A stretch of 64,000 nucleotides of DNA from Candidatus Parvarchaeota archaeon (GTDB taxonomy: Archaea; Nanobdellota; Nanobdellia; B33-G15): positions 8,734 through 72,733 of the forward strand of contig JAFCFZ010000001.1 in assembly GCA_017608385.1 (NCBI GenBank). Direction: 5' to 3'. The translations under genes and the position numbers were made by a program. Shown piece after piece: positions 13,285-63,755 of this stretch (position 1 is its first letter; every line of letters begins with the position of its first letter). Below the pieces are notes generated by a model that made no database searches, was not told the DNA's origin, and was given only the letters and a program-made list of their open reading frames with translations.

Positions 13285-13285
13285 C

Positions 13286-14017: not shown

Positions 14018-14469
14018 TAAGAGTTAGAAAATTGGATTGTGATTTTATCTGACTTATACAATTCTATATTTATTTTAGTACCGGAGATGTAATATCCAGA
14101 CAATTCAACACTCAAGGGAAGAGAAGCATCCAAACACTTTCTAATCCCAACCGATTCAAGATTCACACAAAACTTTCTCCCAATAATTGAAAGATAATAA
14201 ATAGACTCAATTAGTTTATCTGGAAAATCGATTTTATATGTTAAATTAACTGAATTTGTATCTTTTGTTAAGGAATATATTTTCAAAAAGGAAGAATCAA
14301 CATAATTCAAAAAATTGTCCATGCCTTCTTCATAAACATAATCTTCTACATTTGGTAAGAATAAACTAGATAAAAATACTGCAAGGCCAATAACTAATGT
14401 AACACCAATAGTAAAGGTGATAATTTCACTAATAACCACTGCTTGGGCTTTCATATTACTTAGCCACAC
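14014..14469 (-). CDS. Possible pilin-like or secreted protein with a class III-like signal
   Basis: The N-terminus MWLSNMKAQAVVISEIITFTIGVTLVIGLAVFL has K-A-Q followed by a hydrophobic helix with an E. Confidence 0.35.
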   Translation of the reverse strand: MWLSNMKAQAVVISEIITFTIGVTLVIGLAVFLSSLFLPNVEDYVYEEGMDNFLNYVDSSFLKIYSLTKDTNSVNLTYKIDFPDKLIESIYYLSIIGRKFCVNLESVGIRKCLDASLPLSVELSGYYISGTKINIELYKSDKITIQFSNSY

Positions 14470-19808: not shown

Positions 19809-19845
19809 AAAAAAGAGAATCATAAGAGGAAATATATAGGTTTTG

Positions 19846-38563: not shown

Positions 38564-38877
38564 TGCCAGGAATGAATCCACGTGATATTCAAAGAATTAT
38601 GAAGCAGTTAAATGCTAAAAAAATAGATGCTGAAGAAGTTATAATCAAAACAAAAGAAGGGGAATTAGTCATAAAAAATCCAGATGTAACTCAGATGGGA
38701 GTTAGTGGAAATACTGTTTTTCAGATTATGGGGGATATTGAAGAGAAATCAACTCAAGAAGATAGTAATGATGTTAAGTTAATTATGGAAAAAACCGGAA
38801 AAGATGAAGATACAGTAAAAAAAACCCTTGAAAAGAATGAAGGTGACATGGCCCAAACAATTTTAGATCTCTCTTAA
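38560..38877 (+). CDS. nac: Nascent polypeptide-associated complex protein (NAC alpha, NAC plus UBA)
   Basis: A NAC domain (EEVIIKTKEGELVIKNPDVTQMGVSGNTVFQIMG) is followed by a C-terminal UBA (VKLIMEKTGKDEDTVKKTLEKNEGDMAQTILDL). Confidence 0.8.
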   Translation: MMPGMNPRDIQRIMKQLNAKKIDAEEVIIKTKEGELVIKNPDVTQMGVSGNTVFQIMGDIEEKSTQEDSNDVKLIMEKTGKDEDTVKKTLEKNEGDMAQTILDLS

Positions 38878-40484
38878 TCTTTCATCAATAATTCAATGAT
38901 TCTTGCATAAGCTGGTCTTGTGATAAATATTCCTACACTTGTGGCAATTATTGTTGTTATTGCAAATCCTCTTAAAACTCCAGCACCAGCAACTGCCAAA
39001 GGAAGCATTGTTGCTACTGTTGCTGCGAATGCTGCGATTATTATGAAAAAGGCATGTTTTAATCTGGATTTTATACTTTCAATTCTCCTTTTGTCTCCCC
39101 TTCCATGGAGAACTTCATCAGTCATAACTATTTGATCGTCTACTCCTGTTCCAACTGCTGCAATAAGTCCAGCTATTCCTGCTAAATCAAGAGTCCATTG
39201 TAAGAGTGCAGCAACTCCTAAAGTAATGAATATTTCAGATAAAGTCACAAATAATATTGGTAAAGATATTTTCAAGCTTCTATATCTCAAGAAAACAATA
39301 ACTTCTATTCCAAAAATAGCCATCAAGAGCACAAAGAATATGTTTTGTGCAAATTCATTTCCCAATTGAGGAGAAATTATTTCTGTTCTTTCAAGTGTCA
39401 TTGGAACTGGAAGAGTTCTTGATTGCAACAATGCTTGTAATATCTTCATTTCTTTTTGTGATTCAATTTGTGATTCTCTTGCTCCACTTATGGAAGGGTT
39501 TGTAACTGTTTTTCCCTTTAAGTTTGAAGAAATTCTTAACTCAGTTCCTACTGGCTCTCCATCAATATAAAATCCAATTGATCCATCCAAATAACAACCG
39601 GAATCCGTACAATCAACAACAGACATATTAGAAGTAGCATTTGCAAATTTTGCAGCTCCTTCTTGAGAAATGAATATTTCAAAGTTAAAGCTCCAAAAAA
39701 TGCTTCCATCAGAAGACTCTTGTGGAGTTATTTGAGCATAACATCCTGTTCCACCAATACATACTGATAAAATATCATTTCCAGTAAAAATAGTCTTATT
39801 CCCTATTCTTGCCTCAAAATTACCTTCTCTTTCTAATAGTTCTTGTACCTGTTCAGGTCCTACTCCTGCAAATTCCAAACGGAAATATTGGTTTCCTGAA
39901 AAATCTTGGACATAAGATATTGGTATTTCTTTTATTCCAAAAATATTCAATCTTTGTTCAAGAACTGCAATAACATTTTCTACTTCATCTTGAGTTAAAG
40001 TTTTATTGGGTTTCAACAAAACTTTAGTCCCTCCCTCTATTTCAAGACCAAATTCAATATTGGTGTCTCCTATCTCCTCTACAAAAAATCCAATGTTTGT
40101 TTTATTTTTTAATTCTCCTGGGAAATACATTTCACTAAAGGTTGAGAATACATAAGGAAGTGTTTCTCTTTTAAATTCAACAGTAACCGCTTCTGAAGTA
40201 TTTAGTTTGGAAGTGGCTTGAACAAAATCCCCCATATTATTGATTTCATAACCATTTATGTTTGTGACAACATCACCTATACTTATTCCATAAAAAACAG
40301 CGGGCTCCTTAACTGATGTTATTTCTAAACCTACTTTATCAAAATTAGGATGTATCCAAAAGAAACTTGAAAACAAAAAAGCAAGAACTAAAATAATTCT
40401 CCATTCCTGCAATATTTTGATGATTTTTTTGTTCATTTCTTTCTCTCCATATAGATTCTTTGAAGTCCTGCACTCAATATCCAA
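38874..40484 (-). CDS. secD: Protein-export membrane protein SecD
   Basis: A large periplasmic domain is followed by a 6-TM SecD/F C-terminal bundle (ILQALLQSRTLPVPMTL..., GVDDQIVMTDE). It is downstream of secF. Confidence 0.75.
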   Translation of the reverse strand: MDIECRTSKNLYGEKEMNKKIIKILQEWRIILVLAFLFSSFFWIHPNFDKVGLEITSVKEPAVFYGISIGDVVTNINGYEINNMGDFVQATSKLNTSEAVTVEFKRETLPYVFSTFSEMYFPGELKNKTNIGFFVEEIGDTNIEFGLEIEGGTKVLLKPNKTLTQDEVENVIAVLEQRLNIFGIKEIPISYVQDFSGNQYFRLEFAGVGPEQVQELLEREGNFEARIGNKTIFTGNDILSVCIGGTGCYAQITPQESSDGSIFWSFNFEIFISQEGAAKFANATSNMSVVDCTDSGCYLDGSIGFYIDGEPVGTELRISSNLKGKTVTNPSISGARESQIESQKEMKILQALLQSRTLPVPMTLERTEIISPQLGNEFAQNIFFVLLMAIFGIEVIVFLRYRSLKISLPILFVTLSEIFITLGVAALLQWTLDLAGIAGLIAAVGTGVDDQIVMTDEVLHGRGDKRRIESIKSRLKHAFFIIIAAFAATVATMLPLAVAGAGVLRGFAITTIIATSVGIFITRPAYARIIELLMKD

Positions 40485-41317
40485 GTATTAATCACATCAA
40501 AGAAGATTGCAACAAACAAAACAAAAGCAATGTGTTGAATAATTGCTACATTTGACAAAACCAACATTATTGAATAAGTAGTGATGGCTGCAACATCCAT
40601 TGTTAATTCTGTTTTAATGGCTCTCCTTATCCTGCTCATCAAGGTCCCATCTCTTCTCTTAATAATGTTAGTTGCTAACAAAATGTCAGATTCAGTAGAA
40701 TAAGCAATAACCATCAAAATAGCACCGATTGTAGCTATGGAAAAGCTTATGTTGAATATTGCAAAAATTCCTAAGACACTGATAACATCCAACATTGTGG
40801 AACCCATGATAGATATGGCTGGAATAAAGCTTCTAAAGTAATAATAAATAACTAAAGACATCAAAAAGAAGGCAAGAATTATCACTCCGATTGAGTCAAC
40901 CAAAAAAGAAGAAGCAATCAGTGCCGATTGAGAACTTACACTTGTGTTTTCACTATCTAAAACAATACCTAATTCATTTCCTAAATCTTCCAAAACATTA
41001 GAATAATTCAATTCTTTCCCTACTTGAATATCATAACCAATTGTATTTCCAGAAATGTCTCTTAATTCTCTAACAACAACATCTTCTGTTGAAAATAAAT
41101 TGTTAGAAATCTGTTTTAAGTTATTAAGATCATATTGTTGATTTGTGTAAAAAGTTATGGCGGTTCCTCCCTTTATTGTAATATCCTGTTCAAAGAATTC
41201 TCCTGTTGTTGCAAATCTAAAAACAAGAGCGCTTATCATAAATATTGAAATTATTATTGGAATTACAATTAGCTTTTTGTAATTATCATCATATAATTTC
41301 CATATCTTCTCAATCAT
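40433..41317 (-). CDS. secF: Protein-export membrane protein SecF
   Basis: This 294-aa protein has an N-terminal TM helix, a small extracytoplasmic loop and a C-terminal 5-TM bundle. It overlaps secD by about 50 bp. Confidence 0.7.
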   Translation of the reverse strand: MIEKIWKLYDDNYKKLIVIPIIISIFMISALVFRFATTGEFFEQDITIKGGTAITFYTNQQYDLNNLKQISNNLFSTEDVVVRELRDISGNTIGYDIQVGKELNYSNVLEDLGNELGIVLDSENTSVSSQSALIASSFLVDSIGVIILAFFLMSLVIYYYFRSFIPAISIMGSTMLDVISVLGIFAIFNISFSIATIGAILMVIAYSTESDILLATNIIKRRDGTLMSRIRRAIKTELTMDVAAITTYSIMLVLSNVAIIQHIAFVLFVAIFFDVINTWILSAGLQRIYMERKK

Positions 41318-41383
41318 GAAATTTGGTTTTCTTGAGTATTAATAAATCTTACAGTTGTTGTTTATTTCAAAACATCAAGCGGT

Positions 41384-43435
41384 TTAGACTTGTTCTAACA
41401 AATTTTCGCCTATTTTTTTACCAAGAATATCTATAATTTTATCTCTATTTTTTCTTATGTCTTTTACATCTTTGATACCTGCTCTAAACAATTTTCTTCC
41501 CCTGTATCTACCAATTCCTCTAAATCTAACCAAAGCAAGTAGTTCTTCCTTGATTCCTTTAACAACCCTTACTCTTAATTTAGTCAATTCCTTTACATGT
41601 TGTTTTGAATCAACAAGATTTGCTATTTCTGAAGAAGCATAAAGAACCCAATCTAAATTTCTAACTCTATTATAAAGTTCTCCAGGAGAAACTCTATATT
41701 CTTTCAAAATAGAATCCTCTGTTCTTTCGTTAATCCATTCAAACATTACTAGAGCTGTTTTGAAAGATGAAAGAAACTTCTCATAATCATAGTCCCATGG
41801 ACTTGGTTCTTCTTGAATAAGTATGAATTCCCCTAATCTCATTTGTATTTCAGGAAATTCTTTTGGATTTACTCTCATCAATGGGTGCATTTCTGCAGTG
41901 TTACACACCATTTGTAGATATGCAAAGTCTTTCTGTGGTTCTTTTCCAATCAAACAATCTGCAATATGTCTTCCTGTTTTTGGATCAAGATATAATTCAC
42001 TTATTCTATTTCCAAGAGGAGTTGCAAAGAATCCTCCTTCTTTTTCCTCAACCATTCCCCCCTCAATAAGTAAAGAGATTATCTTATCTATTTTTGATTC
42101 TAATTCCAAAATGTTCCCATATTGTTTTGCCCAAAATGTTTTTGAAAAAAAGTTTTTTAGGTCATTAATATTCCTTGTAGACATGCTCGCAATAAGAGCA
42201 AGAATATGAGATCTTAAAACTGGTTCTGAAGATAATTTTGAAAATATTTCTTCAGTATCTGAATTGATATATTCTTCAAAAATAATGTCTTTTTGATCTT
42301 CTGAATTTGCTATACATATTGCTTCTCCTTCTTTATCATAATCTGGTCTTCCTGCTCTTCCTGCCATTTGTTTATATTCTAAAACTGGAATTCTAACTAC
42401 TCTTCCAACATATCTTGTCAAATCTCTAACAACAACCCTAAAAGCAGGGAGATTCACCCCCATTGCCAGAGTAGGAGTAGCACATATTGCCTTTATTTTT
42501 CCCTGTTTGAATCCTGCTTCAATCAATTTTCTTTGTTCAGAAACAAGACCTGCGTGATGGAAAGCAACCCCTTTTTCTACAAAAGAAGAAATTTTCCTGC
42601 ATTGCTCTGTTGGAACTCTTAATGAATGGAGTACTTTATCAGCAAGTTCCTTTTCATTACCAACATTTTTTTCAGAAAGAACTCTGGCAAGACTCTCTGC
42701 AAATCTTCTTGAAGAAACAAAAAATATGATTTGTTTTTCTTTTTTTAGAGTGTCCATTAAAATAGATATTTCTGCTCTTCCTTTGTTAATCACTTCTTCT
42801 TTTTCATTCTCAAAGAATATATTATTATCATAAAACACTCCTTCCTTTAATTGAACAGGCCTATAATCACTTTCCACTAAATCTGCATTTATCCATTCAG
42901 CAATTTCTCCTGCGTTTTTTATTGTTGCACTTAAACAAATAAATTGAGAATTTAGGTGAAGTAATTTTGTCATTAATATTTCTAGAGTAGGTCCTCTTGA
43001 AATATCATTTAACATGTGGACCTCATCAATCACAACAGTTGCAACGGAATTTACCCACAAAACTCTATGTCTTAACAAAGAATCCATTTTTTCAGAAGTA
43101 GTAATAACAATATCATACTTATCCAACCACTTATCAGACGAGTCAAAATCTCCTACAGAAAGTGCTGTTTTAAAATCAGGATATTTTTCAGTAAAATAAT
43201 CATATTTTTCATGTGCTATTGAACGAAGAGGAACTATGTAAAGCATTTTTCCCTTTTCCAACATAAGGTTATTGATTCCTGCCATCTCTGCAACAAGGGT
43301 TTTACCTGATGCAGTAGGTGAAGCTATTACAAGACTTTTCCCATCAAAAAGGCCTTTTTCCACTGCTTTTTGCTGTGGAGGTCTTAAAACTTCAAAACCA
43401 AGCCTCTCTTTTATGTTTAAAGGGACTTTTTTCAT
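41384..43435 (-). CDS. hel308: Ski2-like DNA helicase Hel308/Hjm
   Basis: It has motif I (IASPTASGKTL), DEVH (VIDEVHML), motif III (LSAT) and motif VI (QMAGRAGR), and a C-terminal winged-helix and HLH region. Confidence 0.8.
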   Translation of the reverse strand: MKKVPLNIKERLGFEVLRPPQQKAVEKGLFDGKSLVIASPTASGKTLVAEMAGINNLMLEKGKMLYIVPLRSIAHEKYDYFTEKYPDFKTALSVGDFDSSDKWLDKYDIVITTSEKMDSLLRHRVLWVNSVATVVIDEVHMLNDISRGPTLEILMTKLLHLNSQFICLSATIKNAGEIAEWINADLVESDYRPVQLKEGVFYDNNIFFENEKEEVINKGRAEISILMDTLKKEKQIIFFVSSRRFAESLARVLSEKNVGNEKELADKVLHSLRVPTEQCRKISSFVEKGVAFHHAGLVSEQRKLIEAGFKQGKIKAICATPTLAMGVNLPAFRVVVRDLTRYVGRVVRIPVLEYKQMAGRAGRPDYDKEGEAICIANSEDQKDIIFEEYINSDTEEIFSKLSSEPVLRSHILALIASMSTRNINDLKNFFSKTFWAKQYGNILELESKIDKIISLLIEGGMVEEKEGGFFATPLGNRISELYLDPKTGRHIADCLIGKEPQKDFAYLQMVCNTAEMHPLMRVNPKEFPEIQMRLGEFILIQEEPSPWDYDYEKFLSSFKTALVMFEWINERTEDSILKEYRVSPGELYNRVRNLDWVLYASSEIANLVDSKQHVKELTKLRVRVVKGIKEELLALVRFRGIGRYRGRKLFRAGIKDVKDIRKNRDKIIDILGKKIGENLLEQV

Positions 43436-43485
43436 AAAAGAAAGAAATCAAAAACATTATATATTTTAATCGATAGGTTCAAAAT

Positions 43486-44604
43486 ATGAAAAAATCTCAA
43501 AATGCTGTGCCTGCTATTCTTTTCTTATTTTTGGGGCTTTTTTTGTTTTATGTACTAATGATGACACCTAGTCAAATGGAAGGGCTTTTTGGAGATGACT
43601 CACCAACAACAAATGTTTCACAGGGAATTTCAGAAGAAGTTGGTTTGGTAGGAGGTTCAAGCGGAACAGAAATAGTTGGAACAAGGGATTTTCCAGAGTT
43701 TTTTGTTGCTTATCCTAGTGAGAGGACATTGAGGCACCACGAGAATCAGTTTACTTTATCCTCTAATATTTTTTATTCTGATTCTAAATATTATGATTTT
43801 GAAAAAGGGGACAATACTAAAGGAGTGCAAATATACATGAATATTGCTTCTTTGACAGGAGGCCCTTCATTAAGAGTTCTTCTTAATGGAGTTGAAGTGG
43901 GAACTGTACCCTCTGCAGGAGAAACAACATTAGAAATTGATGAGGCTCAACTTAACTCAAGTAATAGAATTTTGGTAGTTTGTCAATTCCAAGGATGGGC
44001 TTTCTGGGCAGGAGAAACATGTAATTTTGATGAAATGAATATTTATATTGAGAATTTTGAAACCAAAGACAGTAATTTCTCAAGAAATTTTGACATAACT
44101 GAAAAAGAAGCATATGCTTCATTTGTTGTTCTAAATTTCAGCATTGGTGAAAAAACAAATGATGGTGACATTATTGTTAGCATAAATGATGTAGAAGTTT
44201 ACAAAGACAACCCTGTTGAAGGAATATACACTGTAGAGGAAGAAATGAATATCCTTCAAACAAATAAACTACTTGTTCAAGTAGAAACAGGTGGGATTTA
44301 TGAAGTCAAAAAAATGACTTTAGGATTTAAAATGGATCAAATAGCTGAAAAAATGCCAATTATTGATTTTTACCTTGATGATACAAATTCTGACATAATT
44401 GTTAGAGTTTATGTTGAGGAATTAGTTCTTGGACCTAATATTCTAAATCTAAGAATGGAATCAGCAGGAGTGACATATCAAATAAGTCCATTAAGGGCAG
44501 GTTGGAATGAGATCACAATAAATAAAGAACATCTTAGATTAAGAAATTCAATGAGACTATCTTCAAATGGTTTAGTTGATATTGACCACATTGAGATAGA
44601 ATAA
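43486..44604 (+). CDS. Large secreted protein with a class III-like (K-S-Q) N-terminus
   Basis: MKKSQNAVPAILFLFLGLFLFYVLMM is followed by a 340-aa beta-rich domain. I did not recognise a family. Confidence 0.45.
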   Translation: MKKSQNAVPAILFLFLGLFLFYVLMMTPSQMEGLFGDDSPTTNVSQGISEEVGLVGGSSGTEIVGTRDFPEFFVAYPSERTLRHHENQFTLSSNIFYSDSKYYDFEKGDNTKGVQIYMNIASLTGGPSLRVLLNGVEVGTVPSAGETTLEIDEAQLNSSNRILVVCQFQGWAFWAGETCNFDEMNIYIENFETKDSNFSRNFDITEKEAYASFVVLNFSIGEKTNDGDIIVSINDVEVYKDNPVEGIYTVEEEMNILQTNKLLVQVETGGIYEVKKMTLGFKMDQIAEKMPIIDFYLDDTNSDIIVRVYVEELVLGPNILNLRMESAGVTYQISPLRAGWNEITINKEHLRLRNSMRLSSNGLVDIDHIEIE

Positions 44605-44613
44605 GGTGCAAAA

Positions 44614-46233
44614 ATGCCTATTGAAGAAAAATGGTTTTTTGAGGAGGAGGAGGAAGAGGATTCTGATGGAGAGTCTTCTGACTCTGATGGAGAGTCTTCT
44701 GACTCTGATGGAGGTTCATCTAAAAAACAGGGGGGCTGGGCCTACATAATAATGAGTATTGTTTTTGGATTTGTTGGATTTCTTATTTTAGGATTATTGG
44801 GTGGTTTTCTTCTCTTTATATTTCCATTAATTATCTGGTACTTTGGACCAGGAAAGGGAGTCAATTTTGTTATTTTGATTCTTGCTGCTTTTTTGGGATT
44901 GTGGTTTGGTGGAATTTTAGCAGCATTTCTTCTTCCTCTCCCAATTGCAGCTTGGTTATTTAGTGGTTCTTTCTTTGGAGAAGAAGGCGAAGGTAAATTT
45001 TTAAGAGGAATGTTAAGTATTGCTGCATTTATTCCGTTTTTCCTCGTATTTTTGTGGCCAATGATAGGAAGTTTTTTTGGATCTCAAGTTGCAATGGTTG
45101 GAACAAGCTTTGATGATTTTATTGGTATGATAAGTTCTCAAAAAGATCTTTTGATGAATGCAGATTATCAAAGATATTTAGGAGTTCAACAAAGTGTTTA
45201 TGATACTTCTTCACAAACTTATTCAAGTCCTACTACTAGTTTTGAGATAAACAGTTTTACTATCTCTCCTGAAAGTGGATGTTTTGAATTAAACACAATG
45301 AACTTTTTTGGTGTTGTAAAAAACACGGGGACTTTGAATATTGAAGGTATGAAAACGGGATTTTATTTAGATCCCACTCAAATAGGAACTAATTGTGAAC
45401 AAACAATCACCCAAATGGGGCACAAATATAAATGTCTTCTTGGACAAGAATGTATTATGGGGAAATGTGGGCTTGTTTTAGGAGAATACTTCTTAAATGC
45501 TGTTGAACCAGATTGTACATCTCATCCAAATCATGAGAGATGGGGATGTTATTGTGTGGATGAAGATGAAGTTAATACTATGAATACATTATATCCAAAT
45601 GCAATTGGAACATTTACTAAAACGATTGAGATGATTGATCCAAGTGATCCTCTTGATGTTGTAGACGCTATAACATGTAGGTTATTTGCTTATGCTCAAG
45701 CAGAATATACTGTTAGATCAAGATTAGAAGTTTCAATGATAAACTCTGAGTATTACATACTTAAGGGATTAGTATTTTCATCTGTCCCAGCAGTTCAATC
45801 AATAGGTCCTGTTCAATTGAGAATGGGTGTTGGAACACAACCAATTATTAACAACGAAGATAAAAGAGTTTTAACTGTTGCTCTTGGTAATGAAGGAAAT
45901 GGAGAATTAATTGATCTCAATAGTGTCTCATTATATGTCCCTACAGAATTTTCATCAGCAGGATGTGAAGGAGGTCAATTTGTTAGAACAGTTTGTTCAA
46001 GCGCTCCATCTAATATAGATAATTGTGAGGAAATGAGAAGTGAGGGATATAATTTATTTGTATTAGCAGTTGAAGCAACTCCCTATTCCTCCTATTCATG
46101 CTCATTAACTATTAATGAAAATATAAAGAATCTAGGTGGTGAAAACCGAAGATCATTTGTATTTTTAGCAGATGCTTCATATAATTACATGGTCAAAGCT
46201 CCTGCATTCATAACAGGAAATAGGTGTGTTTAA
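44614..46233 (+). CDS. Polytopic membrane protein with an acidic SDGESSD repeat N-terminus and a Cys-containing extracellular C-domain
   Basis: The N-terminus reads EEEEEEDSDGESSDSDGESSDSDGGSS. It is followed by about 6 TM helices in roughly 180 aa, then a roughly 350-aa soluble domain with about 12 Cys. Confidence 0.5.
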   Translation: MPIEEKWFFEEEEEEDSDGESSDSDGESSDSDGGSSKKQGGWAYIIMSIVFGFVGFLILGLLGGFLLFIFPLIIWYFGPGKGVNFVILILAAFLGLWFGGILAAFLLPLPIAAWLFSGSFFGEEGEGKFLRGMLSIAAFIPFFLVFLWPMIGSFFGSQVAMVGTSFDDFIGMISSQKDLLMNADYQRYLGVQQSVYDTSSQTYSSPTTSFEINSFTISPESGCFELNTMNFFGVVKNTGTLNIEGMKTGFYLDPTQIGTNCEQTITQMGHKYKCLLGQECIMGKCGLVLGEYFLNAVEPDCTSHPNHERWGCYCVDEDEVNTMNTLYPNAIGTFTKTIEMIDPSDPLDVVDAITCRLFAYAQAEYTVRSRLEVSMINSEYYILKGLVFSSVPAVQSIGPVQLRMGVGTQPIINNEDKRVLTVALGNEGNGELIDLNSVSLYVPTEFSSAGCEGGQFVRTVCSSAPSNIDNCEEMRSEGYNLFVLAVEATPYSSYSCSLTINENIKNLGGENRRSFVFLADASYNYMVKAPAFITGNRCV

Positions 46234-47264
46234 TGGATTTGAAAAAAATAATACCAATATTGGCAGTGGTTTTGGTACTTGGATGTATACAAGCTCCAGC
46301 AGAAGAAACCAAATTAATGGAATCTGAAGGATTAGGAATTCTATTATTCGGACTTCCATCTAATCCAGAAAATCCTGTTATAGAAATTGAAAAAGTTCCC
46401 GCTAATTCAGATGCCTTTCTTAGTCTTATCTTAAGAAACAATGCAGAAGGAGACATAGCTAAAGATATCACAGTTAGTCTAGACAATGTTGAGCCGTTTG
46501 ATATTGTAGAATGTGGAGATCAACATTCTCCTGTTGCTCAAAGAACTGAAGCATGTTATGGAAGTATATATGATGACAGACTTGAAGATGACTATAGAAC
46601 ACACAGAATAAATGAGATGAGACCTGATGAAGAATTAGAATTTTTTTGGGTGTTAAAATCTCCATCTAAACTAATAACGGGGGGTTTGTATTATCAACAC
46701 CCTATTTATGTAAGTGTGAATTATCACTATCATACAAGTATCTATACTGGTGTTGCTGCAATGACCTTTCAAGAGTATTCTTCAAGAAAATCTGGAGGAG
46801 GAAGTTTAACAGGAACTAGTACTTCAAGTGCAGGAGAGGTAATTGTTTATTCCCAAACAAGTGAGCCTATCTTATATGTTCAAGGTTCTCCTGGTTCATT
46901 TGTATTGAAATTATTAATAACTAATAGAGGAAATGGGATCCCAAAACCGAATGAAAAAGTCAACTTAACTATTGAGTTTGATAAAAATCTTGTTGAATTA
47001 AATGGAGAAACAACAGTTGATGTTGCAAATCAAAATCAGTTAAGATGGTTTAATACAGAATATGGAGCAAACAAACAAGATAGAGAATCATTATTACTCC
47101 AACAAATAGAACCAATCAATTTGATATCAAATTCTTACACAATAAATGTTCCTTTCAAATTATTGGAAAGTAATGCTAATTACCAAATTTTACCTTTTTA
47201 TGTGAGAATCAGTTATGATTATTCTTTAGAAAGTCAGACAGCATTAGGGGTGATACCAACTTGA
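46224..47264 (+). CDS. Lipobox-like secreted protein
   Basis: The N-terminus MDLKKIIPILAVVLVLGCIQAPAEE contains the lipobox-like LVLGC. It is beta-rich with N-glycan sequons and overlaps the next gene. Confidence 0.5.
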   Translation: MCLMDLKKIIPILAVVLVLGCIQAPAEETKLMESEGLGILLFGLPSNPENPVIEIEKVPANSDAFLSLILRNNAEGDIAKDITVSLDNVEPFDIVECGDQHSPVAQRTEACYGSIYDDRLEDDYRTHRINEMRPDEELEFFWVLKSPSKLITGGLYYQHPIYVSVNYHYHTSIYTGVAAMTFQEYSSRKSGGGSLTGTSTSSAGEVIVYSQTSEPILYVQGSPGSFVLKLLITNRGNGIPKPNEKVNLTIEFDKNLVELNGETTVDVANQNQLRWFNTEYGANKQDRESLLLQQIEPINLISNSYTINVPFKLLESNANYQILPFYVRISYDYSLESQTALGVIPT

Positions 47265-48136
47265 AAAAATATATACCTCTCTTTCTAGTGTTGCTTGTTC
47301 TTGGATGTATTCAACAAGAACCTGAAACAAATGACAAAATAATAACTTTTAACGGTTTGACAATTGTTTCATTCTCTGCAGACATAACCAACTTATTACC
47401 AGGAGAAACAACAGATTTGGAACTTTATATCAGAAACATTGGTGACTTCACTGCAGATAATATTGAGACTAAATTAATTGGTTTAGGTGAAATGACTGCA
47501 TTAATGAGAGGTTCCCCTCTAACAGAATTAGAACAAGCAGATTATGATTCATTTTCATGGGAATTAACAGCACCAAATATAGCTGGATTTACAACAGAGG
47601 TACCAATGACCCCTCAAGCAACAGTATATTACAAATATTTTTCACAGGCTTGGTCTGATGTAAATATTGTTCCTTCTTCATATTCTGAACAAGTAACTTC
47701 AGCAAATGGTACTTCCTCAGCTCCAATTGACATCACTATAACCCCAAGTTCAACTCCTTTGAGAACATATAGAGACAATATGCCTCTAAACATCCATATA
47801 GATTTAACAAATAGAGGGGGGGGAGGAATAGCATATTTCGAAAGTGGAGTTGAAAATTCAGCAAAAGCCAATTTTGTTGAGAATATAGTTATTAGATTCC
47901 CATCAGAATGGATAATTACAGATGATTCTTGGACCCTTTTAGGGGATAATGGTGCTGAAAAAGTATATTCATTGGGATGTTCTAGTGAATCCATTGTCCC
48001 ATATATCTGTCCTTCTGGATATAGTAAAGTGGGGAGTTCTTGTATTCAGTGTCCTTCTGGATATAGTTATAATGTAGAAGTTGGATGTGTTTTAGAAGTT
48101 GCAATAATTGATCCGGAAGTTTTCAGGATACAATAA
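47261..48136 (+). CDS. Lipobox-like secreted protein with CPSGY repeats; its C-terminal part appears to continue in ORF 48108..48626 after a +1 frameshift
   Basis: The N-terminus MKKYIPLFLVLLVLGCIQQEPE carries the same LVLGCIQ as the upstream gene. The C-terminus starts the repeats ICPSGYSKVGSSCIQCPSGYSYNVEVGC. The ORF ends 11 codons after a T4 run (48120-48123) where the reading frame switches. Confidence 0.5.
   Translation: MKKYIPLFLVLLVLGCIQQEPETNDKIITFNGLTIVSFSADITNLLPGETTDLELYIRNIGDFTADNIETKLIGLGEMTALMRGSPLTELEQADYDSFSWELTAPNIAGFTTEVPMTPQATVYYKYFSQAWSDVNIVPSSYSEQVTSANGTSSAPIDITITPSSTPLRTYRDNMPLNIHIDLTNRGGGGIAYFESGVENSAKANFVENIVIRFPSEWIITDDSWTLLGDNGAEKVYSLGCSSESIVPYICPSGYSKVGSSCIQCPSGYSYNVEVGCVLEVAIIDPEVFRIQ
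48008..48121 (+). repeat. 114-bp perfect direct repeat, copy 1 (copy 2 at 48243..48356)
   Basis: The 114-bp sequence TGTCCTTCTGGATATAGTAAAGTGGGGAG...ATTGATCCGGAAGTT is identical at both sites. A diverged 121-bp copy of the same coding unit lies between the two. Confidence 0.85.
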
Positions 48137-48626
48137 GGTTGGGGTCTTTTGTATAACATGTCCATCTGGATATACCTACGACATGGAGATTGGTTGTATA
48201 AAAGGAGAGGATATACTCTCAACAGAATCTACAGACCCTATTTGTCCTTCTGGATATAGTAAAGTGGGGAGTTCTTGTATTCAGTGTCCTTCTGGATATA
48301 GTTATAATGTAGAAGTTGGATGTGTTTTAGAAGTTGCAATAATTGATCCGGAAGTTATAATTGATCCGGAAGTTGCTGATCCTCTTTGTCCAAATGGTTC
48401 TGTGGAAGAAGAAGGAAAATGTATTTCAACAGATTCAGAAAGTTGTACAATTGATGATTTGAATTATAAATTAAGATTAACTCAAGGTAATTCAAACTTA
48501 GTTATAGTTCCATTCAATATCAGTCAAGTAGACACACCAGTAACTGAAAGATTCTATGTGAATATGACTTATGGATATAAATTGAATTCAAATCCAATAA
48601 CAATAACAATAATTCCCTTAATCTAA
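48108..48626 (+). CDS. CPSGY-repeat protein fragment, probably the C-terminal continuation of 47261..48136
   Basis: It has no signal peptide of its own. It continues the repeat motif (GYNKVGVFCITCPSGYTYDMEIGC, ICPSGYSKVGSSCIQCPSGYSYNVEVGC, IIDPEVIIDPEV, CPNGSVEEEGKC). Confidence 0.45.
   Translation: MIRKFSGYNKVGVFCITCPSGYTYDMEIGCIKGEDILSTESTDPICPSGYSKVGSSCIQCPSGYSYNVEVGCVLEVAIIDPEVIIDPEVADPLCPNGSVEEEGKCISTDSESCTIDDLNYKLRLTQGNSNLVIVPFNISQVDTPVTERFYVNMTYGYKLNSNPITITIIPLI
48243..48356 (+). repeat. 114-bp perfect direct repeat, copy 2
   Basis: It is identical to 48008..48121. Confidence 0.85.
48339..48374 (+). repeat. 18-bp tandem duplication (ATAATTGATCCGGAAGTT x2) encoding IIDPEV-IIDPEV
   Basis: It is read directly from the sequence and abuts the end of repeat copy 2. 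Confidence 0.8.
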
Positions 48627-49846
48627 AAAAAGTCAGTTATTCTTCTCTCTTTCATAACTATTGGTTCTCCATAAACACCATCATATCCTGGTTTAACTTG
48701 GAGTTTATTATTTCTCATCAAAGCAACCATATCCCCTAACTTTCTATTTATTGCAGAAATATTTTCAATTGGAACATTAAGAAGAATATTAAACTCATTA
48801 TCAAATTTTTCAATAAAAGAATTATAAATATCCCATGCTTTTTTAGTTGCTATGCCTGTCTCCTCTACTTTTGAAATTAATTCTTGAAAAGGGAGAAGTT
48901 TTTTGAAAGGAATACTATTTTCAGGAACAAAACCCAATTTCCTATCTGCTAACTCATCAACTCTGTAATCAACACCAATTGTAAGGGGTTTTCCACATTT
49001 TGGACAAATCCCTTTAACCTTTTTAGTTTCAGAGGGTTTCATAACAACATTACAAGATCTATGTCCATCATAATGATATTTCCCATAAGCTGGTTCAGTT
49101 TCAATAGTAAAGAGAAATTTTTCTTTTGTTCTTATTGCTTGTATAATATTATCATATGTTGGATCATCAATATCAAAAACATTACATTCTCTTCCTATTC
49201 TCCAGGGATATGGTGAATGACTATCACTGTTTGAAATCAATGTGTATTTATCCAATTGACTTAATCTCCAATTCATTTCTGGATCACTTGACAATCCCGT
49301 CTCCAAAGCAAAAATATGTTTTGTCATATCTTCATAACAGTCTTCCACTGTATCAAATCCACTTTTAGAACCAAAAAGTGAAAACCAAGGTGTCCAAATA
49401 TGTGCAGGAATTATTTGAATATTTTTGTCAATTGATTTGAGGATTTCTACTAATTCGGGGGACTTAATTCCTAAAATAGGTCTACCATCTGAAATTAAAT
49501 TCCCTCTTTTACCAAGAACATCTATTATTTGGTAGGCTGAATCAAAACTAGGCACGGTGATTATATGGTGAATCTTCCTAACTTTATCTCCCTTTTTGTA
49601 GATACATGATATTTCTCCAGTTAACATGAATTTCATACCTTTGTGATCAAAAAGACCATTGTTCAAATCAGATAACTGGGGTTTTATTTCATCTAACCAT
49701 CTCTTAAATGTACAATCTCCTGTTGCTAAAACATGTAAACCTTTCATCTTTCCATATTTAGTCATGATTGAAGGTATCATCTTATCAGAAGTTCCTCTAG
49801 CATAAGGTGAGTGTAGATGTAAATCTGCAAATAACATTTTAACCAA
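48623..49846 (-). CDS. PHP-domain endonuclease, EndoQ-like, with a C-terminal zinc ribbon
   Basis: The N-terminus LFADLHLHSPYARGTS...GLHVLATGDCTF...MKFMLTGEIS resembles the EndoQ/PHP N-terminus. The C-terminal part has GICPKCGKPLTIG, a zinc ribbon. Confidence 0.5.
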   Translation of the reverse strand: MVKMLFADLHLHSPYARGTSDKMIPSIMTKYGKMKGLHVLATGDCTFKRWLDEIKPQLSDLNNGLFDHKGMKFMLTGEISCIYKKGDKVRKIHHIITVPSFDSAYQIIDVLGKRGNLISDGRPILGIKSPELVEILKSIDKNIQIIPAHIWTPWFSLFGSKSGFDTVEDCYEDMTKHIFALETGLSSDPEMNWRLSQLDKYTLISNSDSHSPYPWRIGRECNVFDIDDPTYDNIIQAIRTKEKFLFTIETEPAYGKYHYDGHRSCNVVMKPSETKKVKGICPKCGKPLTIGVDYRVDELADRKLGFVPENSIPFKKLLPFQELISKVEETGIATKKAWDIYNSFIEKFDNEFNILLNVPIENISAINRKLGDMVALMRNNKLQVKPGYDGVYGEPIVMKERRITDFF

Positions 49847-50573
49847 TATAATTAATTGATTCTTTTTCTAAATTCCTTTTTGAAGACCTTCTTTTTGGTT
49901 CCTCAACAAGAGTCATTTCTTTCATCTTTTTGAGGTCTATTTTAAATCCTAAATATTCAGAAAGGAACTTAACTATTTTCCTGGCGCCTTTTACACCAAG
50001 ATAAGCTGGATGAGCATAAGTGTCAACAAGAAGAGAAAATCCTTCAAAGCCATTTTGTTGTGCTAGTCCTAATAATACTCCTGCAGCACCTATTACTACA
50101 CTAACGCAAGAAGGATCTGTACAAACCCCTCTTTTACCTATTTTTGAAAGTGTTTTTTTACTGGTTGCTACAGTATGTAATTTAACTATTTTAGGAACTT
50201 TTCTATGACCTATCCCACCTAAAGTAATAATTTCTTTGACTCCTAAATCTCTTGAAACTTTTAGAATTGCTTCTGATATCCTATAAGTCCCTGGTTCTGA
50301 TGAAGCTTGAGTATCTCCAATCAAAAGAACAATGTCTCTTTTCTTGTTTTTTATGAAGTAAACCTTTAAATTTGGAAGAGTTACCAAACTCTCTTCAGAA
50401 ACAAAAACAGAATGAGGTAAATCATCAGAATAAATAGTACAATATTCTTCTGCTTTCAATTCTTTTGCAATAAAATCCACAGATATTTTTGCTACATTTC
50501 CTATTCCTGGAAGCCCTTCAACTAGTATTGGATTTTTTAGATTTGGTTTCTTTTTCTTCTTGATTAATATCAT
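49839..50573 (-). CDS. PAC2-family proteasome assembly chaperone (second paralog)
   Basis: ILVEGLPGIGNVAKISVDFIAKEL...DLPHSVFVSEESLVTLPNLKVYF is the PAC2 N-terminal pattern. The C-terminus is charged. Confidence 0.5.
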   Translation of the reverse strand: MILIKKKKKPNLKNPILVEGLPGIGNVAKISVDFIAKELKAEEYCTIYSDDLPHSVFVSEESLVTLPNLKVYFIKNKKRDIVLLIGDTQASSEPGTYRISEAILKVSRDLGVKEIITLGGIGHRKVPKIVKLHTVATSKKTLSKIGKRGVCTDPSCVSVVIGAAGVLLGLAQQNGFEGFSLLVDTYAHPAYLGVKGARKIVKFLSEYLGFKIDLKKMKEMTLVEEPKRRSSKRNLEKESINYIG

Positions 50574-60147: not shown

Positions 60148-61767
60148 ATGAATGGAAATCAAAATAAAGCAACACAGCCAATAGTCCTACTTCCAGATAA
60201 TTATTCTAGATTAATTGGAAGAGATGCTCAAAGAACAAATATTATGGCTGCAAGAATTGTTGCTGAAACAGTTAGAACAACTTTAGGCCCTAAAGGAATG
60301 GATAAGATGCTTGTTGATTCTTTAGGAGATATTACAGTTACAAACGACGGTGTGACTATTTTAGAAGAAATGGAAATACAACACCCTGCAGCCAAAATGA
60401 TGGTTGAAATTGCTAAAACTCAAGAAGAAGAAGTTGGAGATGGAACTACTACTGCAGTAGTTATTGCTGGAGAATTACTCAAACAAGCAAATGAATTGCT
60501 TGATCAAGAGATTCATCCTACAATACTTGCAAAAGGATATAGACTAGCATCTGAAAAAGCAGAAGCAACTCTAAAAAAGATGGCAATAAAGGTTGATGAT
60601 AAAAAAAGAGAGTATATGTTAAAAGTTGCAAAAACAGCAATGACAGGAAAGAGTGCAGAAGTTGCAAGAGATAAATTAGCACAGCTCTTGGTTGATGCAA
60701 TTATCCAAATAAGTGATAAAAATGAAGTTGACCTAAACAATGTAAAAATTGAAAAAAGAACTGGTGGAGGAATTGATGATACAGTGCTAATACATGGTAT
60801 TGTCATTGACAAAGAAAGAGTTCATTCAGAAATGCCTTCAAAAATGGGAAATGCTAAAATACTCCTTTTGGATGCTGCTTTAGAAGTGAAGGAAACTGAA
60901 ACAGATGCTCAAATAAGAATAACTTCTCCAGACCAATTACAGGCTTTCTTAGAACAAGAAGAAAAAACACTAAATGACATGGTCAACAAGATTGAGAAAA
61001 GTGGTGCAAATGTTGTTTTCTGTCAAAAGGGAATAGATGATTTTGTTCAACATCTTTTAGCAAAAAAAGGAATTTATGCTGTAAGAAGAGTTAAAAAATC
61101 TGATATGGAAAAGTTGGCAAAAGCAACTGGTGGAAAAATTTCCAATAGTCTCAAATCAATTGATAATGTAGATATTGGGTTTGCAGGAAAAGTTTATGAG
61201 AAAAAATTTGGGGATAATGCCTTAACCTTTGTCACTGATTGTAAAAATCCAAAAGCAGTCACACTCCTAGTAAGGGGAAGTACTGAACATATTTTGGACG
61301 AAATTGAAAGAGCTATTGAGGATGCTCTTGGAGATTTAGGTTCAGTGATAAGAAATGGGACAATTGTTCCGGGTGGAGGAGCTCCTGAAATAGAAGTAGC
61401 TAAAGAATTAGAAGAGTTTTCTCAAGGAATGGCAGGAAGAGAACAATTAGCTGTAAAAGCTTTTGCAAAGTCAATGGAGATTATTCCAAGAACATTAGCT
61501 GAAAATGCAGGTCTTGATCCAATTGATATGATTGTTGAGTTGAAAGCAAGTCATGAATCTGGAAACAAACATCATGGTGTAGATGTTTTCAAAGGAACAA
61601 TTGTTGATATGTTGAAACAAGGAGTAATCGAACCGTTGGAAGTCAAGACTCAAGCAATTAAATCTGCAAGTGAAACAGCTATTCTTATACTAAGGATAGA
61701 TGATGTGATTGCTGCTTCTGGAAAAGAAATGCAAAATCCACAGATGCCTCCTATGGGAGATTACTAA
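60148..61767 (+). CDS. ths: Thermosome subunit (group II chaperonin)
   Basis: It has [30 protein letters not shown] and the group II lid region, over a length of 539 aa. Confidence 0.9.
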
Positions 61768-61801: not shown

Positions 61802-62263
61802 ATGCCTAAAAAGAGTTCTAAGTCTAGTCCTTCTAATAATAGGTTAAAATATTTAGAGGACAAGATTGAACAAATCGAGAAGAAAACAAAAATTCTTGAT
61901 CAGTTTGAGTCTGCCATAACCAAATTAGCAGAACAAACAGATAAAATGGTTACAGTCAGTATAAATTTGCAAGCAAAAATGACTGAATTAATGATAAAAA
62001 CAACAGATCTTACTGAAAATGTCGTTGAGATGGTTGATATTCTAAAAGAAGCAGGTGACCTAGAAATGGATTCGGATAAGGAAGGAGGAAAAATTAGTAT
62101 TGAACCTATTGTTACTGAATTGAAAAAGATGCAAGAACAAAATGCTTTAACAATGAAAGAAATGAAGGGTCTTTTAGATTATATGAAAAAGATGTATACT
62201 AAACAATTAATTGGTGAGGCTGTAAGAAGTAACACAGCTGAAAGTGGCGGTTATGTTATCTAA
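61802..62263 (+). CDS. Coiled-coil hypothetical protein upstream of the pilin array
   Basis: This 153-aa protein is heptad-rich (LEDKIEQIEKKTKILDQFESAITKLAEQTDKM...). It overlaps the first pilin gene. Confidence 0.35.
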   Translation: MPKKSSKSSPSNNRLKYLEDKIEQIEKKTKILDQFESAITKLAEQTDKMVTVSINLQAKMTELMIKTTDLTENVVEMVDILKEAGDLEMDSDKEGGKISIEPIVTELKKMQEQNALTMKEMKGLLDYMKKMYTKQLIGEAVRSNTAESGGYVI

Positions 62264-62723
62264 AAAAGGGATTACACCTGTTATAGCAACGGTTTTATTG
62301 TTGATGATGACTGTTTCTGCAGCGGCAGGAGCATATTATTGGATAACAACTGTTCAATCAAGTCTTCAACAAGATGCTCAAGGTGCTATTGCTTCTTCAG
62401 GTATTAGTGGAGGATTTAGAATAAGTATCCTTTCTGGAGGTATTTCTTGTAATGGTACTTCAGATGAAGTAACAGTTTATGTAAAAAATGCAGGCACTCA
62501 AACCATCCCTGCTGGAACTTGGTATTCTTTCTTAAAAAATACCCAAAACATTGGAGTGGGAACCTGGTCTAGTTCTGAATCTGCTTTTAATTCTGGAAAC
62601 ACTTTAACAATAACCTTTGCACTTGATTCTGGGAATGGAATGTCTTCAGGAAACACATATACAATCCAAGTGAGTCCATCAAAGGGTACATCAGCAACAA
62701 CAAGCTGTAGAGCAACAACATAA
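62253..62723 (+). CDS. Type IV pilin-like protein of the KKGITPVIA class III signal family
   Basis: MLSKKGITPVIATVLLLMMTVSAAAGAYYW is an archaeal flagellin/pilin N-terminal-type signal (K-K-G then I-T-P-V-I-A). The 130-aa Ser/Thr/Gly-rich beta domain has two Cys. The start could instead be 62244. Confidence 0.6.
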   Translation: MLSKKGITPVIATVLLLMMTVSAAAGAYYWITTVQSSLQQDAQGAIASSGISGGFRISILSGGISCNGTSDEVTVYVKNAGTQTIPAGTWYSFLKNTQNIGVGTWSSSESAFNSGNTLTITFALDSGNGMSSGNTYTIQVSPSKGTSATTSCRATT

Positions 62724-62759
62724 AAAATCAATTAAATCTATGTATCATAATAACTATTA

Positions 62760-63224
62760 ATGAATAAAAAAGGAATCACTCCTGTGATTTCTATTGTTTT
62801 AATGATTATGATCACAGTTAGTGCTGCTTCTGCTGGTTATTTTTGGATGGGATCTATTCAATCTAATCTCCAAGTAAGTGCTCAAAATGCTATATCTTCC
62901 ACAGGTTTAGGGGGGAATTATCAAATTTCTGCTTTAGCGGGAGGAGTTATTTGTGAATCAGGAGTTGATGGAACAATTCAAGTTTATGTCTCAAATACGG
63001 GATCAAATAATATTGAAATGGGGGATTGGTATATCTTTGTAAAGGATTCAATAAATGCAAATGTTGGAACTTGGACAAATACTACTTTTCTAAATTCGGG
63101 GGAAACAGTTCCCATATTGTTTGAATTTTTGTCTGGCAGTTCTTTGTCAAATAAAACTCAATATGTTATTCAAATTAACTCACCAAAAGGGGGTTCTGCA
63201 ACAACATCTTGTTTACCTAAGTGA
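62760..63224 (+). CDS. Type IV pilin-like protein, paralog 2
   Basis: MNKKGITPVISIVLMIMITVSAASAGYFW has the same architecture and the same two conserved Cys positions (...ICESG..., ...TTSC...). Confidence 0.6.
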   Translation: MNKKGITPVISIVLMIMITVSAASAGYFWMGSIQSNLQVSAQNAISSTGLGGNYQISALAGGVICESGVDGTIQVYVSNTGSNNIEMGDWYIFVKDSINANVGTWTNTTFLNSGETVPILFEFLSGSSLSNKTQYVIQINSPKGGSATTSCLPK

Positions 63225-63260
63225 TAAACTATTTAAACATTCTTGATGTATGTGTTTAAC

Positions 63261-63755
63261 ATGAATAAGAAAGGTATTACACCTGTTATAGCAATTGTTT
63301 TATTGCTCATGATGACAGTTAGTTCTGCAGCAGCTGCTTATTATTGGATGACCACAATTCAGTCCAACCTACAGCAGCAAGCGCAGGGAGCAATATCATC
63401 TGCTGGTTTAGGTGGAGGTTACGGTATCAGTGTTTTATCTGGAAGTACATCTTGTTTGTATAATGGCACAACAGGTACACAAGTAGACGCTTACCTTAGT
63501 GTTACTGGATCCAACCAAATGCCTATTGGAGATTGGTATGCTTTTGTCGTAGACTCTACTGGTGCGAGTGTTGGTACTTGGTCCAAAACAAGTCAAGCAG
63601 CACTATCATCTGGTGTTGCAACAAAAGTTGAATTTACAAATGTATCAATAGTGACTGCAAGTTACAACCTAACTAAAGCAACAGTATATACTGTAACAGT
63701 TAACTCACCAAAGGGTACATCTGCAACAACAAGCTGCACAGGTAGTACGATATAA
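63261..63755 (+). CDS. Type IV pilin-like protein, paralog 3
   Basis: The start is taken at MNKKGITPVIAIVLLLMMTVSSAAAAYYW. It has the same domain and Cys pair. Confidence 0.6.
   Translation: MNKKGITPVIAIVLLLMMTVSSAAAAYYWMTTIQSNLQQQAQGAISSAGLGGGYGISVLSGSTSCLYNGTTGTQVDAYLSVTGSNQMPIGDWYAFVVDSTGASVGTWSKTSQAALSSGVATKVEFTNVSIVTASYNLTKATVYTVTVNSPKGTSATTSCTGSTI

Follow-up and report, generated by a model that had tools for sequence, protein, structure and literature searches.

The stretch of DNA analysed here (the window) comprises 64,000 nucleotides (nt) of contig JAFCFZ010000001.1 from a Candidatus Parvarchaeota archaeon; it has 31% G+C and is archaeal in character. At positions 43486 to 48626 it carries five co-directional open reading frames (ORFs) on the + strand (43486-44604, 44614-46233, 46224/46233-47264, 47261-48136 and 48108-48626), which a preliminary description of the locus had counted as five genes. 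In this lineage we count four, g1 to g4, the last two ORFs being parts of one ancestral gene. The four form a tightly packed operon that encodes membrane-tethered beta-sandwich proteins of the cell surface, all from families without database annotation. The genes and the candidate promoter are as follows.

43458 to 43470, + strand: candidate promoter, the A/T-rich, TATA-box-like element TTATATATTTTAA, approximately 20 nt 5' of the g1 ATG, as read from the sequence.
43486 to 44604, + strand: g1, 372 amino acids, with a class III signal, a helix, a linker and an all-beta ectodomain.
44614 to 46233, + strand: g2, 539 amino acids, with an acidic tail, transmembrane helices and a Cys-rich ectodomain.
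46233 to 47264, + strand: g3, 343 amino acids, a lipobox lipoprotein with two tandem beta-sandwich domains.
47261 to 48122, + strand: g4, read as the N-terminal part of one ancestral gene, a lipobox lipoprotein with a TTG start, in frame to ...AIIDPEV.
48123 to 48626, + strand: "g5," read as the C-terminal part of the g4 gene (nominal ORF 48108-48626, with a TTG start).

The TATA-like element may be an archaeal promoter, from which the operon would be transcribed into an mRNA with a short leader or none. The internal starts carry motifs of the Shine-Dalgarno type: AAGGTG lies 5 nt 5' of the g2 ATG; AGGTG precedes the g3 ATG at 46233, which overlaps the g2 stop as TAATG; and GGTGAT precedes the TTG start of g4, which overlaps the g3 stop as TTGA. 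The GGTG motif that g2, g3 and g4 each possess is absent before the nominal g5 TTG at 48108. The tight packing and common direction of the genes were thus described correctly at the outset, but the range then given for gaps and overlaps (0-10 bp) is too narrow, the overlap of the g4 and g5 ORFs being 29 nt.

The operon is found in at least six other metagenome lineages of the DPANN archaea (Diapherotrites, Parvarchaeota, Aenigmarchaeota, Nanoarchaeota and Nanohaloarchaeota). The same gene order is seen in the loci L001/L002, L003, L005-L007, L008, L009, L011, L012 and L014, and BLASTP confirms the orthology of g1 to g4 gene by gene. A word-index search for homologues returned only three to five relatives per protein; an exhaustive hidden Markov model (HMM) search of 1.84 billion proteins with the g3 profile was needed to reach the 61 cluster representatives of the g3 family, 30 of them at E < 1e-30. 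In the divergent loci L009, L011, L012 and L014 the order is g1, g2, g3, gX and g4, where gX is an extra lipoprotein paralogue, and the number of lipoprotein paralogues per locus is 2 to 3. The fifth gene of these distant relatives is therefore this other paralogue and not a counterpart of g5. The named source genomes are metagenome-assembled genomes (MAGs) of Woesearchaeota and Nanoarchaeota, in line with the original guess of a DPANN origin. Judged from these comparisons, the operon is vertically inherited in DPANN archaea of the Woesearchaeota/Nanoarchaeota type.

The surroundings of the operon are also recurrent. In the window, its close relatives, L011, L012 and L014, the operon is usually bordered by a PAC2-Nop10-eIF2alpha-S27e block and, at the opposite end, by SecDF and/or a Hel308-type helicase; in L009 a KaiC-like ATPase replaces Hel308 upstream and the cluster is intact. 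The SecD/SecF genes of the window (38874-43435, - strand) are divergent to the operon. The Hel308-type helicase gene stands between them and the operon in the window and in L011, and in L014 SecD/SecF and the operon are directly adjacent. The neighbourhood of SecDF and the operon is deeply conserved. Two genes of the PAC2 family, which resembles proteasome assembly chaperones, occur in the window, at 3223-3984 (+ strand) and 49839-50573 (- strand), the second within the block beside the operon.

Searches of Pfam and NCBIfam gave nothing above threshold for the five ORFs, about 20 orthologues, 36 members of the g3 family and nine of its long members, and profile searches of PDB sequences with g1, g2 and g3 gave nothing significant, so that the initial impression of no recognisable family holds. 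Literature searches directed at cysteine-rich surface proteins of Woesearchaeota and at pilins and host attachment in DPANN yielded no description of the operon. Class III signals, lipobox lipoproteins and beta-sandwiches of the CARDB/MG type are known kinds of element; the four protein families themselves are without counterpart in Pfam, NCBIfam or PDB.

The product of g1 begins, as first reported, with MKKSQNAVPAILFLF. This N-terminus fits a class III (pilin-type) signal, MKKS/Q (the slash marks the predicted cleavage site), and is followed by a hydrophobic stretch of approximately 21 amino acids, QNAVPAILFLFLGLFLFYVLMM, with a hydropathy peak of 2.59. The class III rule places G, A or S at -1 and a charged residue at -2 of a site that lies before the hydrophobic domain, and a Q at +1, or a KGQ site, is typical of the EppA-processed Epd pilins, for example those of Methanococcus maripaludis (PMC4371748). 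In eight orthologues the N-termini are MK-KS/QNAVPA, MK-RT/QQAVPA, MK-KS/QNAVPA, MADKPKG/GYATA, MK-KG/QYRVM, MN-RG/QVAVP, MK-KG/QIAVP and MR-KA/YKAAP. K or R occupies -2 in all eight, G, S or A occupies -1 in seven (KS, KS, KG, KG, RG, KG and KA), in keeping with the rule, and Q occupies +1 in six; the class-III-like reading of the preliminary description is borne out. Tyr22 and Pro28 are invariant across the orthologue alignment, and a low-complexity linker after the helix leads into an all-beta ectodomain of approximately 300 amino acids. Small pilin-like proteins are encoded in the same window with the N-termini TKSQLGMEI (1036-1431, - strand), MKSQVSIEY (1415-1819, - strand), RKAQIFTFE (549-1058, - strand) and MKAQAVVISE (14014-14469, - strand). 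Since these canonical pilins use KSQ or KAQ, the KSQ of g1 is a plausible processing site in this organism.

At 372 amino acids, g1 is large only for a pilin, and the term "giant" first applied to it is not warranted. Large class III proteins have precedents, because all-beta, FlaFind-positive minor pilins with Ig-like (immunoglobulin-like) domains exist in arCOG02911 (250-550 amino acids; PMC4858521), as do sugar-binding proteins of Sulfolobus that carry class III signals and are processed by PibD (PMC4371748). As in archaeal class III proteins in general, the N-terminus of g1 is short and charged, and its hydrophobic domain comes straight after the cleavage site; like the arCOG02911 minor pilins, g1 is all-beta, and its length in different lineages (364-461 amino acids) is inside their range. 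Unlike archaeal class III pilins, it lacks the Glu at +5, has Pro and a flexible linker after the helix, and is always encoded with g2 to g4, which are not pilins. Neither g1 nor its orthologues match Pilin_N (PF07790), DUF361 or Arch_flagellin at E <= 1 in Pfam and NCBIfam, which counts, as do the Pro and the low-complexity linker, against g1 as a true filament subunit. The matches that g1 does give are weak, sub-threshold and Ig-like (ChitinaseA_N), and pairwise profile comparison finds it unrelated to g3 and g4.

The second gene product starts with the acidic, low-complexity cytoplasmic sequence EEEEEEDSDGESSDSDGESSDSDGGSS, which the preliminary description gave correctly. Part of this tail is encoded by a short tandem array.

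44659 to 44721, + strand: three 21-nt tandem units encoding DSDGESS, DSDGESS and DSDGGSS in the cytoplasmic tail of g2.

The acidic repeat is absent in P0003, L005, L008, L009 and L014. The character of the tail differs between lineages (acidic, basic or Gly-rich), the distant orthologues having a basic or Gly-rich one, and we read the repeat as a lineage-specific low-complexity expansion. By crude hydropathy g2 has approximately five hydrophobic helices, between residues ~40 and 157, and not the six or so first proposed; three are seen in P0002/P0003 and one in L008, L009 and L014. The acidic repeat and the helix count are both lineage-variable and do not define the operon. Because the number of helices ranges from 1 to 5 between lineages and the tail is variable, the membrane region is best read as an anchor, not a channel or an enzyme. 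In L011 a separate two-helix membrane protein of 114 amino acids (6833-7177), encoded between g1 and g2, resembles a split-off N-terminal membrane part of g2. The ectodomain of g2 (residues ~160-539) is Cys-rich, with 14 Cys. The AlphaFold model of g2, built from three sequences, was poor (predicted local distance difference test, pLDDT, 52) and unusable, and was kept out of the fold search.

Both g3 and g4 contain ...LVLGCIQ, as originally noted, the Cys codons of the VLGC box being 46284-46286 in g3 and 47306-47308 in g4. In g3, G15 and C16 are invariant in close orthologues (alignments A1 and A6), and the Gly-Cys pair is more than 90% conserved in a 36-sequence alignment (A8); in g4 the lipobox is invariant in alignments A3 and A11. 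In almost every full-length member of the g3 family that was inspected, [GAS]C falls among the first 30 residues, and many members have canonical boxes (LAGC, LSGC, ISGC). The preliminary description had let its lipobox reading depend on conservation of the motif among orthologues, and the Cys is indeed near-invariant across about 60 family representatives. Hong et al. 2025 (PMC12462473) report archaeal lipoproteins and the lipidation enzyme AliA for DPANN as well. Like the AliA/AliB-dependent lipoproteins (PMC12462473), g3 and g4 show a hydrophobic stretch preceded by a positively charged N-terminus, and like archaeal lipobox lipoproteins they have [GAS]-Cys within the first 15-30 residues, with the Cys conserved family-wide. 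Unlike strict archaeal lipobox lipoproteins, they have Leu at -2, and their mature domains are of an undescribed family. Lipidation, in archaea an archaeol thioether, has so far been demonstrated for no DPANN protein.

Profile comparisons tie three of the products together. Over their full lengths g3 and g4 match in hhalign at 98%, and at 99.8% (E 1.9e-28) with broader profiles. The g2 ectodomain matches g3 at 94.7% (E 6e-8) and g4 at 96.8% (E 2.9e-10), these two comparisons being significant only with the broader alignments and not with narrow profiles. On this basis g3, g4 and the g2 ectodomain are paralogues. Clusters of the g3 family have an RNNAEG motif in common. A confident AlphaFold2 model of g3 from 36 sequences (pLDDT 91.6; predicted template modelling score, pTM, 0.85) predicts two CARDB/MG-like beta-sandwich domains with a short helix between them. 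Foldseek matches to this model include integrin alpha legs, FnBPA/SdrE, antigen I/II, factor XIII and the C-terminal domain of AglB, at TM-scores <= 0.26. As modelled, the fold is a generic tandem Ig-like module of the adhesin or scaffold type, from which no family membership follows.

Among the closest described folds are those of CARDB (PF07705) and of macroglobulin (MG) domains in surface proteins of prokaryotes. The predicted beta-sandwiches are of CARDB type, but in the HMM comparison all scores stay below the gathering threshold of 22.7 bits (g2, 15.0; g4, 14.2; an L012 paralogue, 16.2 bits), and g3 is unmatched. Examples of these domains are the CARDB domain of Pyrococcus PF1109 (3idu) and those of Thermus TTHA1873 (7wrk) and complement C3/alpha-2-macroglobulin. 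Unlike CARDB/MG proteins, the operon family has conserved RNNAEG, PDEE and Y-x-Y motifs of its own, is without the thioester CxEQ, and has an overall TM-score of <= 0.26 to any PDB chain. Three more specific identities were considered and rejected. For an alpha-2-macroglobulin or other thioester protein, neither CxEQ nor the thioester domain (TED) was found, the match being the similarity of a single Ig-like domain; for a class II fusogen (HAP2/Fsx1), the three-domain architecture with a fusion-loop domain II was not found and the similarity is again that of one Ig-like domain; for a donor-strand fibre of the TasA/AbpX kind, the AbpX match in the PDB profile search reached only E 0.39, and there was no significant sequence or fold match.

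Comparison with relatives indicates that g4 and "g5" are halves of one ancestral gene and that the locus was ancestrally one gene shorter. In L001/L002 (JGI), L003 (ENA) and L006/L007 (Nanoarchaeota MAGs), a single gene of 291-294 amino acids follows g3, and a convergent gene with an MJ0043_C domain comes directly after it. These single-gene orthologues align to the first ~239 residues of g4 and to the last ~60 of g5. Towards its C-terminus g5 has further Cys modules and then conserved strands, ...RLTQGNS...ERFYVNMTYGYKL..., common to the single-gene orthologues. The following features lie at the junction.

47978 to 48446, + strand: lineage-specific Cys-rich insertion of approximately 470 nt, from alignment with insertion-free orthologues.
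48004 to 48121, + strand: direct repeat of 118 nt, copy 1 (identity with copy 2, 99%).
48239 to 48356, + strand: copy 2 of the repeat, with a start-to-start spacing of 235 nt.
48120 to 48123, + strand: T4 run at which the reading frame breaks, from three-frame translation.

The insertion is made of modules of the forms CPSGY-x-KVG-x-x-C and CPSGY-x-Y-x-x-E-x-G-C, is flanked by Cys240 of g4 and Cys113 of g5, and belongs to a loop of the second of the two beta-sandwich domains. The CPSGY repeats first remarked on in g4 and g5 are present, with five occurrences in the six-frame translation of the whole window, all at 48008-48285. As 235 nt is not a multiple of 3, the two repeat copies are mutually out of frame, and the frame break falls exactly at the end of copy 1. 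With one T removed from the T4 run, the translation reads ...IIDPEV-SGYNKVG..., and g4 and g5 become a single product of approximately 454 amino acids. The contig L004 (JGI 3300033155) is an independent assembly of the same population, with 1 mismatch in 5109 nt against window positions 42851-47959. It terminates at window position 47959, 45 nt before the repeat, which marks the region as assembly-prone and suggests that assemblers break or mis-join at the array. The exact ORF translations of g4 and g5 are missing from the protein collection because gene callers picked other starts.

The alternative is that the split is biologically real, either as a pseudogenised or truncated lipoprotein with a free fragment or as an on/off switch operated by slippage in the repeat array. 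We take this seriously and place it somewhat under an even chance. In its favour, the junction IIDPEV/(F)SGY lacks the module-initial Cys-Pro and so resembles a true deletion, not a de Bruijn mis-join, and the two 118-nt copies differ at one base. On the other hand, slippage would not be efficient on a run as short as T4, every orthologue has one intact gene, and the independent assembly stops just where the region becomes hard to assemble.

Insertions of this sort recur in the family. Members of the g3/g4 family tolerate large Cys-rich insertions at two loop positions, and also long C-terminal extensions. Other examples of the insertions are in P0008, P0016 (29 Cys) and P0039 (1321 amino acids and 83 Cys, including CPSGYSLK); the long members P0035, P0036, P0042, P0045, P0051 and P0055 have 800-1100 amino acids; and CPxGY modules occur as well in the g2 orthologue of L013. 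Between lineages the length of g3 ranges 4-fold, from 341 to 1321 amino acids. The CPSGY array of the window is one instance of a general tolerance of insertions.

The best reading of these findings, which we regard as about evenly balanced between right and wrong, is that g1 to g4 make up a co-expressed, heteromeric complex of the cell surface with a structural and/or adhesive role. In such a complex one mRNA would start from the TATA-like element, and the GGTG motifs and stop/start overlaps (TAATG, TTGA) would couple translation and so keep the four products in a constant ratio. All four would be Sec substrates, tethered in different ways. A prepilin peptidase would cut g1 after Lys-Ser and leave the conserved hydrophobic helix at its N-terminus; g2 would be held by its 1-5 transmembrane helices, with the variable tail in the cytoplasm; and a lipid attached to the lipobox Cys (an archaeol thioether made by an AliA-type pathway) would hold g3 and g4. 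The paralogous two-domain modules of the g2 ectodomain, g3 and g4 would probably sit next to one another as a pseudo-symmetric, membrane-proximal platform, and the lineage-specific, disulfide-rich loop insertions (here the CPSGY array of g4) would be its exposed face, probably in contact with a ligand or a host.

The idea of a dedicated surface complex, already put forward in the preliminary description, is supported to the extent that the gene set stays together, with start/stop overlaps, where the flanks differ; that the products form one physical complex is something we infer. The analysis establishes the gene structure and its conservation, the paralogy, the signal motifs and the g3 fold; cleavage, lipidation, assembly and function are inferred from these. 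Several points weigh against it. All of the sequences are metagenome assemblies. The flanking housekeeping genes are syntenic in the same genomes, and the conserved gene order may for that reason partly be general synteny and not functional linkage. No gene for PilB/FlaI, PilC/TadC or a prepilin peptidase adjoins the cluster in the approximately 10 loci examined, and none of these is among the scanned ORFs of the window (the peptidase was looked for among the polytopic ORFs, where ORF 13247-14017 is without a GxGD-type motif), so that g1 could be an uncleaved signal-anchor protein. One of its eight orthologues has Thr at -1 (RT). The lipobox of the window, V-L-G-C, fits the pattern [LVI][ASTVI][GAS]C at -3, -1 and +1, but its Leu at -2 falls outside the strict class. 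Lastly, the matches to the g3 fold are generic and point to no particular activity.

Among the other explanations, the one that survives best, unlikely though we think it, is that g1 to g4 are building blocks or the anchor of a surface layer (S-layer) or other regular lattice, with g1 and g2 as a SlaB-like stalk and the lipoproteins as a canopy. All of the products are extracellular beta-sandwich proteins, as are many archaeal S-layer proteins, they are encoded at a core, vertically inherited locus among housekeeping genes, and translational coupling would supply the stoichiometric expression that a lattice needs. The likeness to SlaA/SlaB of the Sulfolobales lies in a membrane-anchored partner with outer beta-rich subunits, the genes being neighbours and, here presumably, co-expressed. 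Unlike SlaA/SlaB, the operon proteins are much smaller (~300-540 amino acids) and are without a sequence or fold match, and there are four differently anchored subunits in place of one anchor and one canopy. No S-layer family in Pfam or NCBIfam was matched, and the 4-fold variation in the length of g3 is ill-suited to a fixed lattice.

It is also conceivable, and in our view quite unlikely, that the operon supplies an accessory module to a type IV pilus-like filament, with g1 as a large pilin of the minor or tip type, similar to those of arCOG02911, g2 to g4 as a base or adhesin complex, and PilB/PilC encoded elsewhere. The conserved class III motif of g1 would fit this role, the genome has several small pilins and archaellin-like proteins, large minor pilins are known (PMC4858521), and so are pilins encoded away from their ATPase genes (PMC4371748). 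The lack of adjoining pilus machinery just described tells against it, as does the failure of g1 to match the pilin families; moreover, its helix runs into Pro and a low-complexity linker and not into an amphipathic continuation of the pilin alpha-1 helix.

Very doubtful is the proposal that the four genes encode independent neighbours (individual adhesins or bindosome-like substrate binders) without a common complex: archaea commonly have loci that encode several surface proteins with Ig domains (PMC8416519), the class III sugar-binding proteins of Sulfolobus offer a parallel (PMC4371748) and the number of lipoprotein paralogues varies, but the order g1-g2-g3-(gX)-g4 is fixed down to ~20-30% identity with codon overlaps, the three paralogues are kept as distinct orthologous lines without turnover, and Pfam and NCBIfam show no similarity to solute-binding families. 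The closest described archaeal module with several Ig-fold proteins is VARTIG of the Thermococcales (Makarova et al. 2021, PMC8416519), which, like the operon, encodes surface proteins, is restricted to a lineage and varies strongly in its exposed parts. VARTIG modules lie in hypervariable, recently acquired islands and are built around a protein of >1000 amino acids whose C-terminal domain is shuffled, with variable genes downstream (PMC8416519). Unlike these, the operon has a fixed core chromosomal position and a fixed gene order, and its variability is confined to loop insertions.

Other loci in the window also encode probable surface proteins. Three adjacent small ORFs at 549-1819 (- strand; 169, 131 and 134 amino acids) have the canonical class III N-termini RKAQIFTFE, TKSQLGMEI and MKSQVSIEY, and divergent to them, at 1893-3335 (+ strand), is a 480-amino-acid protein with a signal peptide, a hydrophobic segment at its C-terminus and an MG2 match below threshold (27.1 against 32.8 bits); together they look like a separate pilin-plus-adhesin locus. 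Three tandem paralogues of approximately 155-165 amino acids with KKGITPVI N-termini are encoded at 62244-63755 (+ strand), just downstream of the thermosome gene (60148-61767). The first (62244-62723) is above the Arch_flagellin threshold of Pfam (31.5 against 29.5 bits), the second has a weak Pilin_N match, and no FlaI/FlaJ genes are visible within the window. A class III-like protein of 151 amino acids (NMKAQAVVISE; 14014-14469, - strand) with a weak DUF7266 match adjoins the unannotated polytopic ORF 13247-14017, which is without a peptidase A24-type motif. The 371-amino-acid ORF at 18708-19823 (- strand), with an N-terminal signal-like helix, a C-terminal hydrophobic segment and a weak Ig-like (Cep192_D3) match, may encode a further anchored surface protein.

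DPANN archaea depend on contact with other cells, and to our knowledge almost nothing is known about their surface proteins. The locus described here brings together, at one fixed position in the core genome, four protein families that are inherited together and lack annotation, and it combines in one operon three known archaeal tethers (the class III helix, transmembrane helices and the lipobox lipid). The products of g1 to g4 could therefore be used as DPANN substrates for testing prepilin peptidase and AliA-type lipidation. The g4/g5 split is a caution that repeat insertions create false gene calls in MAGs. As a candidate envelope or attachment apparatus, the operon could guide cryo-electron tomography and proteomics of enrichments, and it could serve as a marker operon for the lineage. 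It is tempting to go further and suppose that it specifies a DPANN-specific attachment organelle, in which a pilin-like g1 and a g2/g3/g4 platform would carry fast-evolving disulfide-rich loops (up to 83 Cys) that recognise the host, set the host range of the episymbiont and diversify by repeat rearrangement, as at 48004-48356; we would call this a long shot. If the Cys-rich inserts do bind the host, they would offer a handle on host specificity.

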